Shown piece by piece: positions 22,181 to 30,302 of a stretch of 64,000 nucleotides of DNA. Position 1 is the stretch's first letter; every line of letters starts with the position of its first letter. Under the pieces are notes generated by a model. The model did no database searches. It was not told where the DNA came from and saw only the letters and a program-made list of their open reading frames with translations. The DNA is taken from positions 352,001-416,000 of the forward strand of contig JAUVXV010000002.1 in the NCBI GenBank assembly GCA_030603365.1, read 5' to 3'. This DNA comes from Candidatus Heimdallarchaeota archaeon. Its GTDB lineage: Archaea; Asgardarchaeota; Heimdallarchaeia; Heimdallarchaeales; Heimdallarchaeaceae. The translations under genes were made by a program, and so were the position numbers.

Positions 22181-23386
22181 TTGTTATCTCTCCTAATGTC
22201 TTTTAGGAAAAGCTTTGGCTTAGATTTTCATTTCCCTGAAACTGAAATTTACCTAGATTCCGCTACTTCGGGAAAGATGCCTGTTTCTTCAGTTGAAGTT
22301 ATGAGTAACTATTATACTGAATTAGGAGGAGGAATTAATAGAGGCACTCATAAAAAAGCTGTAAATGCTAATAGAAAACTAGAACAATCACGTTCTACAG
22401 TAGCAAACATTTTCTCAGTAAATTCCAACAATGTTTCTTTTCTTCCCTCTCGAGAAACTGCTTTGATGAACTTTCTTCTATCTGGCATTTTTTCAAAAGA
22501 TAATGAAATAATAGTTAGTTCTTTAGATGATCATTCCATACTTGCACCAGTTTTAAAACTAAGAACAGTATACGATGTGCGTTTAAACTTTCTAAACCTA
22601 CAAGACGAATCAAATCTAGTTGAAGTCATAGAAGAGAGAATTACAGCAGAAACTAAAGCGATAGTTCTTTCAGTTATGACCCTGGGAATGGGAATTAAAC
22701 GAAATTGGAGAAAGATTACAAAAATCGCTCAGGATGCAGAAATACCTTTAGTTCTAGATATAAGCAATGCTATAGGTCATATGGAATTTAATTTCAAGGA
22801 TATAACTCCAGATATCGTAGTTTCTTCTGGAAATATCGGTGCGTTAGGTCCCCAAGGTACTGCTTTTCAAATTGTAACAGAGGACATGATGAAGAAATTT
22901 GATCCCATCTTAGTTGGAGGAGGAACAGTTATGTCTCTAGATAGATCTACCTATAAATTAGCTTCTGGCATTAACAAATATGAACCAGGGACTCTCAACA
23001 TAAGTGGAATTGCAGGATTAGCTAATAGTTTACAATCTTTATCTGAGATAGGTTTTGAAAGGATTACTAAACACGAAATCGAGCTACGAGCAATGCTTGA
23101 AGATGGGTTAAGAAAGACTAACAAATTGAACCTCATCGAACATCAAGGGTTAAATTATGGCCCAATACTCTCGTTTATGAGTGATGAGATAGATTCTCAT
23201 GACATTGCTATCATTCTCGAAGATTTGGGAGATATCTATGTAAGAAGTGGGGCATTATGTTCACATTTGTTCATGGAAGAACTACAAAAAGAATCTCTTG
23301 TTCAGGTTTCTACACATCTTTATAACACTAAAGAGGATATAGAAATTTTCTTAGAAACCTTAAACTCCATAATGTCTGAAATTTAG
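22181..23386 (+). CDS. SufS/CsdA-like class V aminotransferase-fold protein A, PLP-binding Lys replaced by Ile
   Basis: YLDSATSG, INRGTH, SGNIGALGPQG (canonical SGHKGxxGPxG), YEPGTLN, RSGALCSH, HLYNT. Confidence 0.85.
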   Translation: MLSLLMSFRKSFGLDFHFPETEIYLDSATSGKMPVSSVEVMSNYYTELGGGINRGTHKKAVNANRKLEQSRSTVANIFSVNSNNVSFLPSRETALMNFLLSGIFSKDNEIIVSSLDDHSILAPVLKLRTVYDVRLNFLNLQDESNLVEVIEERITAETKAIVLSVMTLGMGIKRNWRKITKIAQDAEIPLVLDISNAIGHMEFNFKDITPDIVVSSGNIGALGPQGTAFQIVTEDMMKKFDPILVGGGTVMSLDRSTYKLASGINKYEPGTLNISGIAGLANSLQSLSEIGFERITKHEIELRAMLEDGLRKTNKLNLIEHQGLNYGPILSFMSDEIDSHDIAIILEDLGDIYVRSGALCSHLFMEELQKESLVQVSTHLYNTKEDIEIFLETLNSIMSEI

Positions 23387-23503
23387 AATTAGTGGGTATC
23401 CATTTATTAGTTACTTTTACTTTCTTTCATTGTTTGAATCACATTCAAGAATATCTTTTGCTAGTTTAAATACCAAACTGCGTATAATAATTCCAGAGAG
23501 TAG

Positions 23504-25711
23504 TTGGTGGAATTTATCTCAACTGAAACTATCACTCGTACATTTCATTTAAATTCAATTGAAACAGAAGAGATATTTTGTTATAGAGTATTTGGAGATT
23601 TTAAATCTGCAGTAAATACTCTAATAAAAGGAGGAATAAACCTCAACAACGAAATTTTCAGAGAAGAGAGTTTAGTTTCAGTAAAGCGGTTCTATTCACT
23701 ATTAAGAAAAAATTCATGTATAAGTGCTAAATTGAGCAAGCTTGAAATTAAAGAACGTTTATTGAGATGTGCTGCTCAGTATGCATATTTTTCTATTCGT
23801 AACCTAAAACAAACAAGAAATTTGTGCAGTGAGATTGCACAAGTAATGAGTGAAGATTCTTCTTGGAATAAATTTCGCAGAGATTCTTGGTTCTTATGGG
23901 ATTTATCTAAAAAATCAAAAAAAAGAAGAGATAATTTGAATGTAAAATTATTAAATCAGATTAAGAACAAACATAATTCTATATATCCTGAACAAAACAG
24001 AATGTGCAATGCACACTTGATAAATAATTATTTCAGACACATTCGAAAAATTATTCTTAGTAATCTTCAAAGGAAGGATATCAAAATCAATATTGATTCA
24101 GAATATTGTATTAAAACAATTCGAGAACATTACAGTTCTGAATACATAGATACTCTGATTAGTAAGTTTAAAACTCAAATTTCAACTTTATTAACTAGAC
24201 AATTCAAGAAATACAAAAAGAATGAAATTTCTGAAAAATCAGATGGAAACAAACAATCAAACGTTCCAGTTTTAAAAACTATTTACTCAATATGTAAAAC
24301 TAAAAAGATTCATAATGTTGAAATTGAAGAATGGAAACTAAAAAAAGAGTTATGGTTGATTAGATATATCGACGAAATTAGAGATTTCTTTAAATCTGAA
24401 TGTGTTAATCAAGAAATTAACAGAGGGATAAAAAGATTACAGGAAAAACCAACAGTGTATTTCCTAGCAATGTTTTTAGAGAAAAAGATTTTCAAATTGA
24501 GAAGAAAAATTCAAGGAGAACCAGTTAGAGATTTCTATTTCTTTCTATCACAAATAATAGATTATCATCTCACTCATCTTATACTCGAAACACAACAGAT
24601 GGTTATTTTACCTAAAATACGCATGATTCTCCTTGATTTCATTCTAAAGCCACTATCTTATCTCAAAATGCCAATCTTTACAAAATCAGTAATCCCTTTA
24701 GGAATCGATGACAATCAAGTTTATACATTGGAAGAGTTACAAAGTGAAGTAAAAATCACTTTGTCCTTTTATCCAAATCAGAAAAAACATTTCAAATTAT
24801 CATCACCAGAAAGATATTTCGAATTAACTATGAATAATGCAAAACCTGCACGAGGAATTCTTTCAGCTCATGGTGGCAAGCTTCAACTTGCTATTCCGTT
24901 TACTAGACGTTTACCAGAGTTATCAAAGATAAAACCTCTTGAAAAACAAAGAATTCTAAATTGTGATCTTGGATTGAAATCTTTTGCTGTTTTGAGTATT
25001 ACAGAAAATGGTTTTGAAACACATAGAAAATTCTTGGATCAAAAACAACTAACGGGTTCAAAAAATTCATGGTTCCTAGCAAAATCATTTAGAAATAAAA
25101 ACACAAAAACACGAGAAAAACCAACTATAAATTATAAATTCAATCTTATGAAACTCCGTAAAAAAATAAATAATTTACAATCAGAACTGAAAATGATGAA
25201 AGAAGAGACGAAAAGAAGAAGATCTAAGAACAAGAATTATCCTAAGTATAAAAATACCAAACTGTACTGGTATAAAAAAAGAGAATTGAAGTCTTACTGG
25301 AACAGAATTAGGAATATTCACAAAGAATTGATACATCAAATTTCTACAAGAATAGTTGAATATGCCAACTATCATCAAGTAGATACTATACGCTTTGAAG
25401 ATCTTCGTTGGACTCAACATTCAGCTAAACATGAAGTTGGTTATTTTCTCTCTTTCTGGCAAGTACATTGGTTTTTCAGCCAGATAATAGAATACACATC
25501 ACAAATTGCTAGAAGATATATGATTAGGTCTGTTCTAACTAATCCATATAAAAGCTCACAAATTTGCTCTACTTGTGAAAAGGAAGGAAAAAGACAAAGA
25601 AAGATATTCATGTGCTCAAATGAACTGTGTGGACTAATACTTGACAGTGATTTAAATGCTGCTCGAAACTTAGGTAAAAAATCACGCAAATGTTATCCTA
25701 TTCGACTATAA
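23504..25711 (+). CDS. Large (735 aa) TnpB/Cas12-like RuvC nuclease with C-terminal zinc ribbon
   Basis: RuvC-I NCDLGLK (D488), RuvC-II IRFEDL (E632), SSQICSTC...FMCSNELC, RuvC-III DSDLNAARNL (D716); Lys/Arg-rich; long uncharacterised N-terminal half. Confidence 0.85.
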   Translation: MVEFISTETITRTFHLNSIETEEIFCYRVFGDFKSAVNTLIKGGINLNNEIFREESLVSVKRFYSLLRKNSCISAKLSKLEIKERLLRCAAQYAYFSIRNLKQTRNLCSEIAQVMSEDSSWNKFRRDSWFLWDLSKKSKKRRDNLNVKLLNQIKNKHNSIYPEQNRMCNAHLINNYFRHIRKIILSNLQRKDIKINIDSEYCIKTIREHYSSEYIDTLISKFKTQISTLLTRQFKKYKKNEISEKSDGNKQSNVPVLKTIYSICKTKKIHNVEIEEWKLKKELWLIRYIDEIRDFFKSECVNQEINRGIKRLQEKPTVYFLAMFLEKKIFKLRRKIQGEPVRDFYFFLSQIIDYHLTHLILETQQMVILPKIRMILLDFILKPLSYLKMPIFTKSVIPLGIDDNQVYTLEELQSEVKITLSFYPNQKKHFKLSSPERYFELTMNNAKPARGILSAHGGKLQLAIPFTRRLPELSKIKPLEKQRILNCDLGLKSFAVLSITENGFETHRKFLDQKQLTGSKNSWFLAKSFRNKNTKTREKPTINYKFNLMKLRKKINNLQSELKMMKEETKRRRSKNKNYPKYKNTKLYWYKKRELKSYWNRIRNIHKELIHQISTRIVEYANYHQVDTIRFEDLRWTQHSAKHEVGYFLSFWQVHWFFSQIIEYTSQIARRYMIRSVLTNPYKSSQICSTCEKEGKRQRKIFMCSNELCGLILDSDLNAARNLGKKSRKCYPIRL

Positions 25712-25838
25712 GTTAAATAGGAGGGGTTTCCGTTTAATCCCAAATTAAGTTGCTCAGAAGAGCAACTTTGAAAATTCGGTCACTTAAGCTTCTTTCTGGC
25801 ATAGCTTCAAGCTTCACCAAATGCCTTTCGATCATTCC
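25696..25838 (+). ncRNA. Putative omega-RNA/right-end RNA of the TnpB-like gene
   Basis: Consecutive hairpins 25696-25722, 25723-25741, 25747-25768 (perfect 9-bp stem) and 25786-25807, then TTCAA/TTCAC resembling IS200/605 right ends. Confidence 0.45.
25819..25838 (+). repeat. 20-nt repeat, copy A
   Basis: aaatgcctttcgatcattcc versus aagtgccttccgatcattcc at 28862..28881 (18/20). Confidence 0.75.
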
Positions 25839-25947
25839 GTATATATTGGTTGTACAATTGTATATACAAAAGTTTCTATATCTGAAGAATGCAATAACAT
25901 TGATATTCTCAGGTTATTTTTTTCCAAAGATTAAGAAAAGATTATTC

Positions 25948-26184
25948 TTATTGTATATATTCTGTTTCTTCTTTTTCTAGAAGTAGATAAATTCTATCAA
26001 AGTTTATTTGTTCTGCAGCTGCACTTCTTTCTGTATTTTTTGTTATCTTCCAATCCTTGATTGTATATCCTTCTGGAAGTTTATCAAATGCATCTTTTAT
26101 AGCCTTATCAAGTATTTCAATTCCTTCTGAAGTAAATATCGCTGTATTTACATCTAAATATTTCAGTTCATATCTCGATCCCAT
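25948..26184 (-). CDS. Small hypothetical protein
   Basis: 78-aa ATG ORF with protein-like composition. Confidence 0.6.
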   Translation of the reverse strand: MGSRYELKYLDVNTAIFTSEGIEILDKAIKDAFDKLPEGYTIKDWKITKNTERSAAAEQINFDRIYLLLEKEETEYIQ

Positions 26185-26415
26185 TCAAATCAATGTAAAA
26201 CAACATAATTTCTTTAAATACTTTTTGAACAACCATTTCTTCCCAAAAAATTTCTATTGTTTGTATACTTTCTATCATTTATCTTTTTTTATTTCTATGA
26301 TTTCCTTTCTTAATTCAAGTACTTCTTCATATATTGACAACTTCATTAGCTCCACAACTTACTCTACAAAGAAAACCCTTCGTAGGTGGATATTTAAGAA
26401 TTGTTGACAAAGAAG

Positions 26416-26452
26416 TGTAATACGTCCTGTAATACACGTTCTATGCATTACA
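26416..26452. promoter_or_regulatory. Operator-like TGTAATRC repeats
   Basis: tgtaatac at 26416 and 26428, inverted gcattaca at 26445, just upstream of a TATA-like element (tatttaag) and ORF 26490. Confidence 0.4.
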
Positions 26453-26489
26453 AAGGTATTTAAGATAAAAAAACTAATTATTATTTGAC

Positions 26490-26744
26490 ATGGCTAAAAA
26501 ATACAGAATTAGTGAAAAAATAAGAAAAAAGATGAGAAAGGACAAATCCTCACTCTTTCCCTTACCTTTGAAAAAGAAGGTCGAAGTAGCTTTGTGTTAC
26601 AGATGTAATAGAAACAAATCTACTAAATTGTGCCTTAATTGTAGAAAACCTATTTGTAATCCTTGTGAAACAAAAAATCCTAAAGGTTATTGCGTTCCTT
26701 GTAGAAATGAAAAATTCGGTTTTGTATCATTTACTTTTGAATAA
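26490..26744 (+). CDS. Small basic zinc-finger protein (B-box-like, 8 Cys)
   Basis: CYRC-x8-CLNCRKPICNPC-x8-CVPC. Confidence 0.7.
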   Translation: MAKKYRISEKIRKKMRKDKSSLFPLPLKKKVEVALCYRCNRNKSTKLCLNCRKPICNPCETKNPKGYCVPCRNEKFGFVSFTFE

Positions 26745-26797
26745 AGATTTGATGAATTGTTCCGCGTAGAGATAATTCAAATAGTTCTATATTATGT

Positions 26798-27007
26798 TTA
26801 TATTTTCTTATTTCTTGATCTACGCTCTATGATGATAAGTAACAGACCTATTGCAAGAAATCCAATTGCTGCAGGTTGAATCCACATTGCCATCGATCCT
26901 CCTGAAAAATCTTTTACAAACCAAATTATAGTAAAAACTATACCGATGATTAAAACTATCGGACCAATCAAAATTCTAAAAGTTATTTTTTCTAATAAAC
27001 TCATCAC
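26798..27007 (-). CDS. Small two-TM membrane protein
   Basis: Two hydrophobic helices, basic tail, strong SD-like ggaggtaa upstream on the minus strand. Confidence 0.65.
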   Translation of the reverse strand: MMSLLEKITFRILIGPIVLIIGIVFTIIWFVKDFSGGSMAMWIQPAAIGFLAIGLLLIIIERRSRNKKI

Positions 27008-27185
27008 GATTTACCTCCCTCCATTCTGTGAGAGAGTACAGGATTTTTCTCACATTTTTAAAAAGTAACCGATTATCTGTAGTAAAACTATTTTCTTTTT
27101 TTACCATTTTACGACCAAACCGAAATCTAAACAATTCAGATAAAAACTAAGAATTAACTAACAATCAAAGAAGGATGAGATCTTA

Positions 27186-28475
27186 ATGAATAAAAACATA
27201 GTATATGGAAGCACATTGATAGTTGTTTTTTTAAGTGCAGGAATACTTACTGGTTATTTTATTCCGCAAAATAATCAGGCACAATATGATACACTACTAT
27301 CAGAATTTCAAGATTTGAATGAGGTATATAATGCTCTTTTAGAGGATTACAATACTCTACTAGGGAATTATACTGAAATAAAAGAGAAATGCGATATAAT
27401 AACTGGAGAATACGATTCTTTGAATGAAACCTACTACAACCTGTTAGAAGAGTATACTTTGTTGAATGAAACCTACAATGAATTGTTGGTAGATTATAAT
27501 ACCTTTGTAGAATCTTTCAACACATTGCAGATAGCTTATGATCAACTAAATGATTTATATTCACAACTTCTGATTGATTATGCTGTTTTTGAAAATGAAT
27601 ATAATGCTTTACTCCAGAATTATGATTTGTTGACAGCATGGATCAGAGGAATGACTTTACCTGCTCAGTACATGGTTTTTGCTGAGGCTGTTAGAAGATA
27701 CTACTTTGAAGATTTTTATGTTAAAGATACTTGGGCTACGGGAAATGAAACAGGATATTTTGCAGAATATGCACTATTCAGTCGTGATATAGTTTTGCAC
27801 GATTCTGATTTGTCATTGAAAGGAGAATTATTTGCTGAAGTATCAAATGCTCTTTCTGATTGTTTGATATATGGGAATGAAACTGAAGGCTTAGCTTGGA
27901 TGTGTATGATTGGCGTGTTTTATCCTTGGCTTCCTAATTGGAGTGGATATTATTCGTCTGGAAATGAACTAACTGATATTGATACAATAGTTCAGTGGTG
28001 CATTGATGAGATCGACTACGAATATGATACAACTATAACATATGGACAAGAACTTTATTTTTGGGATTATGTCAAGTTTCCAGTCGAAACAGCTTTCAGA
28101 ACAATGGGGGATTGTGAAGACCAAGCTCTATTCTGTGCAGCTTATCTAGAATCTTGTGGATTTCAAACTGCACTAGCATTATTTCATGATGCTGAAAATC
28201 CTATTAGTCCTGATGGTTTTTATCATGCAACTTTGTTAGTACATATAGAAGACCTAGCAAACTTTCAGTTTTGGCATCCATTTTGTCCTTTGTGGAGTCT
28301 AAGTGACATAGATCCATATGAAGGATATACTTGGGTATGGTTAGATTCTACTTGGGATGTCTCGTTTCCGTCAAAACCTGGATGGATGCAATACTACCTT
28401 GATAATGGAATAAATGATGACGATCTTACAATAGTACTATGTGACTTAAATGGAGCTACTAGCTATGCTCCTTAG
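27186..28475 (+). CDS. Membrane-anchored coiled-coil protein with a transglutaminase-like cysteine protease domain
   Basis: N-terminal TM, heptad repeats (YNxLLxxYxxL), IDYEYD, PVETAFRTMGDCEDQA (Cys), YHA (His), WLDSTW (Asp). Confidence 0.8.
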   Translation: MNKNIVYGSTLIVVFLSAGILTGYFIPQNNQAQYDTLLSEFQDLNEVYNALLEDYNTLLGNYTEIKEKCDIITGEYDSLNETYYNLLEEYTLLNETYNELLVDYNTFVESFNTLQIAYDQLNDLYSQLLIDYAVFENEYNALLQNYDLLTAWIRGMTLPAQYMVFAEAVRRYYFEDFYVKDTWATGNETGYFAEYALFSRDIVLHDSDLSLKGELFAEVSNALSDCLIYGNETEGLAWMCMIGVFYPWLPNWSGYYSSGNELTDIDTIVQWCIDEIDYEYDTTITYGQELYFWDYVKFPVETAFRTMGDCEDQALFCAAYLESCGFQTALALFHDAENPISPDGFYHATLLVHIEDLANFQFWHPFCPLWSLSDIDPYEGYTWVWLDSTWDVSFPSKPGWMQYYLDNGINDDDLTIVLCDLNGATSYAP

Positions 28476-28641
28476 CAATTTTTTTTCCTCTTAATTAATT
28501 ATACTTATACGTAAGCAATCTGCTTACAGAGATTTAAACCTCGAGCAGTAAGAAGTTTGTTTGTGATCTTACATTAGTCGTGGAGAAATGGCTTTAAACT
28601 TATGTTTAATGATTCGTATGGCTTTTTTGTTTCTTATATTA

Positions 28642-28783
28642 TGTCTCACCCCTCACTGTTTTTCAACTGTTTAACCCTGCTTTTTCTGGGAAGATTTTCC
28701 TGCTGATCCAGACCACAGAAAGTTCTTGTGCAGAGGAAAGGAAAGGAAGGGTTGAGACGAGAGAAGAGAGAAGGGGTGATACA
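28642..28783 (+). ncRNA. Unclassified structured RNA candidate (long rod with two apical hairpins)
   Basis: tcacccct/aggggtga, gtttaaccct/agggttgagac, ctttttctg/cagaggaaag, inner ggaa/ttcc and cacagaa/ttcttgtg stems; GC-rich relative to flanks; G-U pairs favour the + strand. Confidence 0.5.
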
Positions 28784-28861
28784 CACTAGTATAGATCTTA
28801 CAGAAATTTCTTTCGTTTCCGAAGATAGATATTTATTAAAGAGTAACCATAAAAAAAATGG

Positions 28862-28881
28862 AAGTGCCTTCCGATCATTCC
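28862..28881 (+). repeat. 20-nt repeat, copy B
   Basis: 18/20 match to 25819..25838; ends about 90 nt upstream of the ATG at 28972. Confidence 0.75.
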
Positions 28882-28971
28882 CAACTAGTATATTGTGAGT
28901 AAATATAGAAACTTTTTGATTTTAGAACAAGTAAAGTTTTAATACAGAATAAATAATAGAAAAACGAAATT

Positions 28972-30165
28972 ATGTCGTCTATAACACGATTTGGAATCGA
29001 GTTTAACATAAGATCTAACCAAATATATCTAGATTCTGCAACCATTGGTAAAATGCCTATTTCCTCAATTAAAGCCATTTCTGATTATTATCTAGATGGG
29101 GGAAGTGTACCAGTTAGGGGAATGCATAATGAAATTTCTCAAAGTAATAATTTTCTAGAAGAAAAAAGGGGAGAGCTAGCAAATCTATTTCAAGTAGAAC
29201 CTGTTCAAATTTCGTTTTTTCCTTCAAGAGAATCCAACTTAACAAGTATCCTTTATTCAATAGAAGATATCAAAGATAGGAGGATTATAACTAGCGTTCT
29301 TGAAGAACACTCTGTAATTGGTCCTGCTATCAGAGCTAATAATGATCATGGAACAGAAATAGATTATTTGAATGTAAAAAACGAAACAAATCTGTTAGAG
29401 AGCATTAATCAGAAGGTAAATTCCGAACAAGATATTCTGCTTTTATCTTCTTTAACTTCAACCAACGGAGTTAAGAGAGATTGGTCTGAGATAGCTAAAG
29501 TCTGCAAAGACACTGGTGCAACTTTTCTTCTTGACATAAGTTATTCTTTAGGTCATGAAGAGCTAAATTTCAAAGAAATTTCTCCTGATGTTGTCTTCGC
29601 ATCAGGTTGCATTGGTGCATTAGGACCCCCTGGAACAGCTTTTCAAATCACTAAAAAAGAGTTTTATGATAAGATGGATCCATTAATTGTGGGCGGAAAT
29701 TCAATAATTACTTTGGAAGAAGAGTATTATTTACTTACATCTTCAGGTTCTAAATTCGAGACAGGACTCGTTAATTGTGCAAATATTAGTTCGATGGTAA
29801 ACAGTTTAAGGATATTATCAAACGTTGGCTTTTCTAAAATTCAGGATCATGAAAGTAAATTAAATAATTTCCTAAGAAAAGAGTTAGAAAATTTACCATA
29901 TATTGAAATCAACAGTGTAGAAAATGTGGAATATGGTCCTATCATCTCCTTTGGCAGTAATAAAATTGAAGCTCATGATCTGGCTATAGTTCTAGAAGAC
30001 TTGAAGGATATCCAAATAAGAAGTGGAGCTCTCTGTTCTCATCTTTTCATGTATGAATTACCATTCAATGATATTTTGAGGGTATCTACGCACCTTTACA
30101 ATACAGAAGAAGAGGTGAAAATATTCATTGAGACACTTTCCTCAGTCTTAAGTGAGATGTCTTAG
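28972..30165 (+). CDS. SufS/CsdA-like protein B, PLP-binding Lys replaced by Ile; paralog of 22181..23386
   Basis: YLDSATIG, PVRGMH, SGCIGALGPPG, FETGLVN, RSGALCSH, RVSTHLYNT. Confidence 0.85.
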   Translation: MSSITRFGIEFNIRSNQIYLDSATIGKMPISSIKAISDYYLDGGSVPVRGMHNEISQSNNFLEEKRGELANLFQVEPVQISFFPSRESNLTSILYSIEDIKDRRIITSVLEEHSVIGPAIRANNDHGTEIDYLNVKNETNLLESINQKVNSEQDILLLSSLTSTNGVKRDWSEIAKVCKDTGATFLLDISYSLGHEELNFKEISPDVVFASGCIGALGPPGTAFQITKKEFYDKMDPLIVGGNSIITLEEEYYLLTSSGSKFETGLVNCANISSMVNSLRILSNVGFSKIQDHESKLNNFLRKELENLPYIEINSVENVEYGPIISFGSNKIEAHDLAIVLEDLKDIQIRSGALCSHLFMYELPFNDILRVSTHLYNTEEEVKIFIETLSSVLSEMS

Positions 30166-30228: not shown

Positions 30229-30302
30229 GCACGCATAGTCTAGTGGTAGGACTGAGGCCTCCCACGCCTCCAACCCGAGTTCGAATCCCGGTGCGTGCAC
30301 CA
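30229..30302 (+). tRNA. tRNA-Gly(CCC), CCA end genomically encoded
   Basis: Acceptor stem gcacgca/tgcgtgc, D-arm gtct...ggac, anticodon arm gaggc-ctCCCac-gcctc, T-loop ttcgaat, 3' acca. Confidence 0.95.

Follow-up and report, generated by a model that had tools for sequence, protein, structure and literature searches.

Box C/D ribonucleoproteins of archaea contain L7Ae, Nop5 and fibrillarin and use a small RNA (sRNA) as a guide for 2'-O-methylation. Archaeal C/D sRNAs typically carry dual guides with targets at most 100 nt apart, and antisense placement of their genes at the 3' end of protein genes is likewise described as typical (PMC6009581). TldRs, a second kind of system with a bearing on what follows, are TnpB-like nuclease-dead repressors, defined by the decay of their RuvC domain (10.1101/2023.11.30.569447). 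The present study concerns a locus in the genome of Candidatus Heimdallarchaeota archaeon (assembly GCA_030603365.1; 3.65 Mb in 17 contigs) where elements reminiscent of both occur side by side. The stretch analyzed, here called the window, comprises 64,000 nt of the 467-kb contig JAUVXV010000002.1 (positions 352,001-416,000, forward strand; all coordinates below are window positions). In it, a 20-nt sequence (20-mer) occurs twice between two SufS-like genes, once downstream from a tnpB gene and once 3 kb further on. We conclude with good confidence that this repeat is the start of a box C/D sRNA gene, duplicated at the insertion of a 3-kb segment, that the tnpB insertion sequence (IS) is a separate acquisition, and that no guide/target relation links the two copies. 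A duplicated sRNA start flanking an insertion is ordinary in kind.

The pentamer TTCAC (25813-25817) is followed by caaatgcctttcgatcattcc at 25818-25838. Copy A of the 20-mer (AAATGCCTTTCGATCATTCC, 25819-25838) and copy B (AAGTGCCTTCCGATCATTCC, 28862-28881) lie on the same strand and are identical at 18 of 20 positions, in agreement with a sequence-only reading of the window made before this analysis. Two matches to the 20-mer appeared in none of 100 dinucleotide shuffles of the window, and scanning the whole assembly at up to 4 mismatches returned copies A and B only. Hence the repeat is real and non-random, and does not belong to a dispersed family. Copy B ends 90 nt before the ATG of SufS-like B at 28972, and an A8 run on the plus strand (28851-28858) reads as a U8 tract on the minus strand, where it closely follows copy B; both features had been read correctly from the letters alone.

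The origin of the repeat became apparent from sister genomes (labels such as G016, L002 or C14 for genomes, loci and contigs are those of this analysis, G000 being the genome of the window). The genus was searched at the DNA level and the spacers between SufS-like A and SufS-like B were aligned. In 21 sister genomes the two genes are direct neighbours, separated by about 160-180 nt of spacer that contains a single copy of the motif, within an element of about 62 nt. The segment 25781-25838, including TTCAC and the 20-mer, is thus ancestral spacer DNA. The G020 spacer matches the window over 25778-25838 and again from 28862 onward, the overlap being exactly the 20-mer, and from 28862 to the SufS-like B ATG the window is collinear with the spacers of G016 and G020. 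This last portion includes the ancestral region upstream of SufS-like B (28882-28971, plus strand) with its TATA-like sequence TAAATATAG. The intervening 3,023 bp (25839-28861) are absent between the SufS genes in the 21 sister genomes. Given the single-copy, collinear sister spacers, 25839-28861 is an insertion bracketed by a 20-bp direct repeat. A duplication flanking a 3-kb insertion had been among three alternatives initially offered, and it is the one that the empty sites bear out: they carry a single copy, and the flanks of 25839-28861 join there.

The 62-nt element is 87-90% identical among relatives, whereas the flanking genes are only 65-72% identical. With high confidence we take it to be a box C/D sRNA gene whose boxes are non-canonical, lying on the minus strand at 25770-25845; its expression and its role in methylation are predictions from sequence. 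Read on that strand, the window copy is 5'-..ACGG A AUGAUCG AAAGGCAUUUG GUGA AGCUUGAAGCU AUGCCAG AAAGAAGCUUAA GUGA CCG..-3', with AUGAUCG as box C, GUGA as box D', AUGCCAG as box C' and GUGA as box D. In plus-strand coordinates, box D occupies 25780-25783, the D guide 25784-25795, box C' 25796-25802, a variable loop 25803-25813, box D' 25814-25817, the D' guide 25818-25828, box C 25829-25835 and the GG of the terminal stem 25837-25838. The distances are 11 nt from C to D' and 12 nt from C' to D, and the terminal stem closes. Like archaeal box C/D sRNAs in general, the element is about 62 nt long, has two guides of 11-12 nt between its boxes and lies antisense at the 3' end of a protein gene, its ends pairing beside the GA/GA core of a kink-turn (K-turn). 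The 20-mer on the minus strand reads GG-A-AUGAUCG-AAAGGCAUUU, where the last part represents the first 10 nt of the D' guide. So composed, copy A forms the 5' end of the intact sRNA gene, and copy B is an orphan 5' fragment joined to the ancestral spacer, one nucleotide away from the form of the motif found in G020 and G023. The suggestion that the copies represent a conserved small RNA is borne out in this sense for copy A. The pentamer TTCAC, initially regarded as closing a nuclease scaffold, corresponds in reverse complement to box D' (GUGA) plus an A.

A covariance model (R1) was built from the 62-nt element and used to search 30 genomes of the family (five genera) and 16 genomes from the other families of the order. 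In the genome of the window the sole full match is the element itself, at 85 bits; orthologues score 78-94 bits. One copy per genome was found in 27 of the 30 family genomes, and no match was obtained in the 16 genomes from the other families. Copy B yields only a partial match (13 bits, model positions 9-27) and, lacking a D box, it would be unable to form the K-turn. In every relative examined, a SufS-like A orthologue lies directly upstream of the element; members of the other genera likewise have it immediately after a single SufS-like gene, with which it is convergent. Two deviant matches were noted. In G005 (L031, G005:C163, 2922-3021) the orthologue has a 12-nt tandem duplication (GCTTTACCAAAT twice) at the junction of the loop, D' box and D' guide, and its score is lower (75.7 bits). 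A weak second match in G006 (L206, G006:C45:6600-6671; 25.8 bits) keeps AAGAAG..UUAG and UCAUUUGAU while its C box is gone; it could be a decayed paralogue or a chance match. A metagenome scan with the pattern TGCCTTNCGATCATYCY returned 80 loci, which are chance matches, the pattern being too degenerate; one of them, L124, a partial R1 match, reads as an open coding frame (a reading of the sequence, not a gene call) and was set aside.

The pattern of substitutions supports a K-turn. The GA dinucleotides of the C and D boxes, which would form the tandem G.A pairs, are invariant or nearly so in 27 sequences, and the ends of the element form a stem. Within this stem, the pair between alignment positions 13 and 80 is GC in 9 sequences, GU in 9, AU in 7 and CG in 2, with no unpaired cell. 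The pair 22-74, joining position 6 of the C box to position 1 of the D box, is CG in 24 sequences and AU in 2, and G026 has a matching, compensating A/U insertion beside the three-nucleotide loop. A different structure, a minus-strand GNRA hairpin, had been proposed for the motif. Its pairing pattern is real, since 98% of the cells pair among the 27 relatives and the N of the loop is the sole variable base (A, G or U). The hairpin was nonetheless rejected as the structure of the motif, because compensatory changes are lacking and its three exceptions coincide exactly with the sequences compensated in the K-turn pairing. The base that varies within GNRA is the first, unpaired base of the guide, free to vary. 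RNAalifold gave only weak consensus structures on either strand, and the fold of the single sequence is no better than that of shuffles (z = -0.25), as expected for an RNA with open guides.

Both guides are complementary to 23S ribosomal RNA (rRNA). The D guide AAAGAAGCUUAA pairs over 10 bp with UGAGCUUCUU in the genome's own 23S rRNA, using positions 2-11 upstream of box D, and the D' guide AAAGGCAUUUG forms 10 Watson-Crick pairs with CAAAUGCCUU. Thus each guide reaches the expected minimum of 8-10 bp of complementarity covering the fifth nucleotide upstream of its box and, as in other archaeal box C/D sRNAs, that nucleotide faces the target. A distance of 19 nt separates the two sites, again within the archaeal habit. 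Matches of at least 10 bp for both guides within 100 nt were obtained in only 1 of 5000 shuffles of both guides. The target region (..CUAUGAGCUUCUUAAGGUAGGCAAAUGCCUUGUC.., about 128-175 on contig C14) is identical in the complete genome G027. An initial scan of the 16S rRNA and the 5' two-thirds of the 23S rRNA had given nothing above shuffles; it missed the target because the 3' part of the 23S rRNA is on a separate contig, C14, the gene being split over contig ends (C8:14-2006 and C14:18-1665). Among tRNAs, no target was found for the guides beyond 9-10 bp with G-U pairs. The predicted 2'-O-methylation sites are the G of UGA[G]CUUC and the U of CAAA[U]GCC. By an alignment to Escherichia coli, offered as a lead, we take the region to be the 3' strand of helix 69 (H69) together with H70/H71, and the nucleotides opposite the fifth guide position to be presumably equivalent to C1920 and U1939 of E. 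coli. The genome encodes fibrillarin.

The tnpB element (23398-25780, plus strand; 2,383 bp) resembles tnpB-only members of the IS200/IS605 group, with GGT at both junctions and ends accordingly ambiguous by 3 nt. Its junctions in the window, at 23397/23398 and 25780/25781, read AATTAGTGGGT/ATCC on the left and TTCGGT/CACTTAAGC on the right; the corresponding site is empty in about 20 sister genomes, with the pattern ..GGT/CAC.. (TAGTGGGTCTCTTTAGC in G016, AATAGGTCACCTAAGC in G020). From these comparisons the element is a clean insertion. It encodes a TnpB/Cas12f-like nuclease of 735 aa (23504-25711, plus strand) with a zinc ribbon and an intact RuvC triad (D488 in CDLG, E632 in RFEDL and D716 in DSDLNAARN); that RuvC looks intact had been remarked in the sequence-only reading. 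The protein matches PF07282 (E 5.6e-12) and a PHROG transposase (E 1e-19); the best PDB match is TnpB 9nzp, with which E632 and D716 align, D488 having been assigned by reading the sequence and not from that alignment. As in other IS200/IS605 tnpB elements, a structured RNA region overlaps the end of the coding sequence and extends as far as the right end of the element, with the adjoining flank as guide. This omega-RNA-like scaffold (25690-25780, plus strand) comprises three hairpins spanning the stop codon and ends in ...UUUGAAAAUUCGGU; the 96-nt stretch ending at 25780 folds into three strong hairpins (-28 kcal/mol, z = -4.1). Three homologous loci (L002, L003 and L004) share the 3' non-coding sequence up to ...CTTTGAAAATTCGGT, which ends at 25780, and are unrelated beyond; the last conserved bases, in the window and in the three homologues, are ...TTTGAAAATTCGGT. 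Since scaffold conservation and empty sites both end the element at 25780, the guide is predicted to start at 25781 and not at 25818, and to consist of CACTTAAGCTTCTTTCTGGC (25781-25800, plus strand). The mature RNA would then be the scaffold ending in ..UUCGGU followed by about 16-20 nt beginning with CACUUAAGC. No second match to CACTTAAGCTTCTTTCTGGC was found in the genome at up to 2 mismatches. The likely transposon-associated motif (TAM) is ..GGT, the empty-site target being ..GGT followed by CACCTAAGCTTCTTTCTGG.

The element also departs from its IS200/IS605 relatives. Its TnpB exceeds the typical size by about 300 aa, and the N-terminal half of the protein has no assignment: the roughly 480 residues preceding RuvC-I (window 23504-24960) have no match among Pfam, PHROG or PDB sequences. 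No tnpA is present within the element, and tnpB occurs once per genome, that of the window included. Full-length TnpB homologues (45-48% identity) occur in G013 and G019, with fragments in several other genomes; altogether, three homologues from sister genomes (G013, G019, G009) are 45-52% identical and lie in other neighbourhoods. As the 3' edge of the sRNA gene was the insertion site of the IS, the predicted guide at 25781-25800 is perfectly complementary to the sRNA region comprising the D box, D guide and C' box (25778-25802, minus strand). The two RNAs could pair if both were made, which is probably incidental.

This placement of the element's right end decides against the proposal that the TnpB-like protein, guided by 25818-25838, binds or cuts 28862-28881 and so regulates SufS-like B in the manner of a TldR. 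The locus has the appearance of such a system: there is a TnpB relative, and a short sequence downstream from tnpB recurs upstream of a gene nearby, the 18/20 match being on the same strand and 3 kb away. However, the 20-mer does not occupy the guide position, for it starts 38 nt past the scaffold and the start of the guide, and the DNA from 25781 to 25838, part of which had been drawn as a fourth scaffold hairpin, is ancestral spacer in about 20 sister genomes that have no TnpB at the site. Decay of RuvC is what defines TldRs, and here the triad is intact; the transposon context is kept, and no matching TAM is found at the putative target: the sequence 5' of copy B, AAAAAATG, is unlike the left flank ..TGGGT. 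Even in the register proposed, the mismatches fall at guide positions 1 and 4, within the seed of about 6 nt. The position of the right end thus refutes regulation of SufS-like B by a nuclease guided in this way. That the repeat is a chance match or an assembly artefact is extremely improbable as well. No public sequencing run holds the junctions at usable depth, but the shuffling result, the position of the copies exactly where the single ancestral site is split and the 467-kb length of the contig all speak against it.

Two further explanations accept the ancestral site. According to one, a unit of about 60-70 nt (the 20-mer plus the TATA region) was first duplicated in tandem and the 3-kb DNA later came to lie between the copies; the flanks would then have diverged while the 20-mer was kept, and neither an attachment site nor a target-site duplication would be involved. 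Consistent with this, a TATA-like stretch lies about 25-35 nt after both copies (GTATATACAAAAG after A, TAAATATAGAAAC after B), resembling the ancestral TAAATATAGAAAG of G016. Outside the 20-mer, though, the flanks align only with several gaps; copy B is just 1 nt off the ancestral motif and its flank is collinear with G016 and G020, whereas the flank of copy A matches G023 only. Such unequal decay would require selection on copy B, and we regard this order of events as unlikely. In the other explanation copy B was kept by selection and is no mere scar: it could yield a short RNA acting as decoy or terminator, transcribed from the former sRNA promoter, or be an operator that SufS-like B needs for its expression. 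Its single change from the G020/G023 form would fit, as would a 5-bp hairpin, GGAAG-GCA-CUUCC, that precedes the U8 tract (28851-28858, minus strand) exactly at the junction. This hairpin and tract may simply terminate the output of the old promoter, a role suggested by their arrangement. But the z-score of the fold is only -1.5, and in other genera no second SufS gene follows the element, which ties the motif to the sRNA and not to SufS-like B. A retained function for copy B accordingly strikes us as quite doubtful.

Against these stands the reading that we prefer, a box C/D sRNA gene whose start was duplicated by an insertion. On this reading, the ancestral sRNA gene stood alone in a spacer of about 170 nt between the tandem SufS-like genes, convergent with SufS-like A, its product being predicted to guide 2'-O-methylation of 23S rRNA in the H69-H71 region. 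Two independent insertions followed. One brought the tnpB-only IS (23398-25780) to the 3' edge of the sRNA gene, with an IS guide (25781-25800) unrelated to the 20-mer. The other placed the 3,023-bp segment exactly at the 5' edge, duplicating the first 20 bp; copy A remained with the intact gene and copy B with the old upstream region, which also serves SufS-like B. The data show the single ancestral copy, both junctions, the boundary of the IS, the conservation, the covariation and the complementarity to rRNA; production of the RNA, its methylation role and the way in which the 3-kb piece entered are inferences from them. The IS on the 3' side and the 3-kb segment on the 5' side exactly delimit the intact sRNA gene (25778-25838), and the IS restores ACC and a U4 tract after the D box.

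As to how the 3-kb segment entered, our guess is site-specific integration at a 20-bp attachment core, with subsequent loss of the integrase. The arrangement recalls the attL/attR sites of elements integrated in tRNA genes, with an intact small-RNA gene at one end, a partial copy of the gene end at the other and a single copy in relatives; it differs in that the target is a C/D sRNA gene, the repeat has 20 bp with 2 mismatches and no integrase is present. A tentative idea, more likely wrong than right, is that the repeat is the attachment core of a site-specific integrative element whose target, in place of a tRNA gene, is a box C/D sRNA gene at its 5' end. It is prompted by the left-end sequence of the segment, which recurs at 24 of 25 positions directly after this site in G023, a non-sister lineage. 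If true, the site would have been used repeatedly, leaving a remnant in G023 and an integrase-less 3-kb relic here, and a carrier of the element would bear AAATGCCTTYCGATCATTCC beside an integrase gene.

Several observations weigh against parts of the preferred reading. As regards the sRNA, the C box AUGAUCG agrees with RUGAUGA at 5 of 7 positions and the D box GUGA with CUGA at 3 of 4. The two positions that deviate, C6 and G1', form a pair, so that the usual G6-C1' pair of archaeal sRNAs is here swapped to C-G (A-U in two genomes). In many relatives the C' and D' boxes have degenerated. Other clades show GUAA, AUUU or AUCU at D' and AUGAAAU at C', with a covarying stem (GAUUU/AAAUC or GAUCU/AGAUC) in place of the boxes. 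In a subgroup of 7 genomes the stem beside the K-turn is poor, yet an outer 7-bp helix (GAAAAUC/GAUUUUC) is present; overall the terminal stem has 3-7 bp, longer than in most archaeal sRNAs. Rfam searched at permissive thresholds with the window and eight relatives gave no match at the element. As regards the insertion, no integrase or recombinase domain was detected (Pfam, PHROG) in any open reading frame (ORF) of 25839-28861, the segment has no terminal inverted repeats, and neither of its junctions could be checked against reads. No RNA run is listed publicly as containing the locus, and four cold-seep metagenome DNA runs held only short, low-depth pieces, none bridging either junction. In addition, the 50 or so nucleotides to the right of copy A (25839 to about 25890) resemble the G023 spacer, the TATA-like stretch at this end being CAATTGTATATACAAAAGTTTCTAT in the window and CAATTATATATACAAAAGTTTCTAT in G023 (24 of 25 identical). 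A single insertion in a common ancestor of this genome and G023 was considered and is weakened by the trees of both SufS paralogues, which have the form (this genome,(G016,(G023,G020))) with G023 sister to G020. Because the flank of copy A is shared with a non-sister, the history must be more complex than one simple insertion; it needs several independent losses, exchange between lineages or repeated use of the site by a related element.

The 3-kb segment encodes proteins of 78 aa (minus strand), 84 aa (zinc ribbon, plus strand), 69 aa (membrane, minus strand) and 429 aa (transglutaminase-like with coiled coil, plus strand), and includes about 390 nt of non-coding DNA ending in A8-TGG. Its modules are found at separate places in G013, where the neighbours of one cargo homologue include no integrase. 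PHROG searches with the cargo proteins gave nothing meaningful, and the 429-aa and 78-aa proteins have no relatives among viral contigs. A stretch of about 120 nt (26285-26408), comprising a small minus-strand ORF and its upstream region, matched more contig pieces, with variants and some with higher word depth, in all four cold-seep runs, as well as G013:C153 (89% identity), G016:C67 and G009:C4. A small module that is conserved or present in several copies could account for this.

The genes that frame the locus, SufS-like A (22181-23386, plus strand; class-V aminotransferase fold; PF00266, E 3e-63) and SufS-like B (28972-30165, plus strand; PF00266, E 8e-59), are tandem paralogues throughout the genus with 43-47% mutual identity. 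In other genera only one SufS-like gene lies within about 2 kb of the sRNA (L070-L075), and in the SufS tree sequences from two other-genus genomes branch with the B clade, with modest support. A tRNA-Gly(CCC) gene at 30229-30302, just after SufS-like B, accounts for the many short DNA matches of 84-87% to this part of the window across the genus, including C14:68952-69033 of the same genome.

In conclusion, these results dispose of a false lead, the idea that an Asgard TnpB uses an RNA guide to regulate the gene next to it, which arose because the sequence just past the transposon end had been taken for scaffold and guide. The pair of empty and occupied sites instead defines the ends, the likely TAM and the predicted guide of an unusually large TnpB. 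The analysis also brings to light what would be an unannotated family of box C/D sRNAs whose boxes are non-canonical and whose predicted targets lie in 23S rRNA; it is conserved across one archaeal family from cold seeps. That the 61-nt gene survives intact although an insertion touches each of its ends marks where selection acts.

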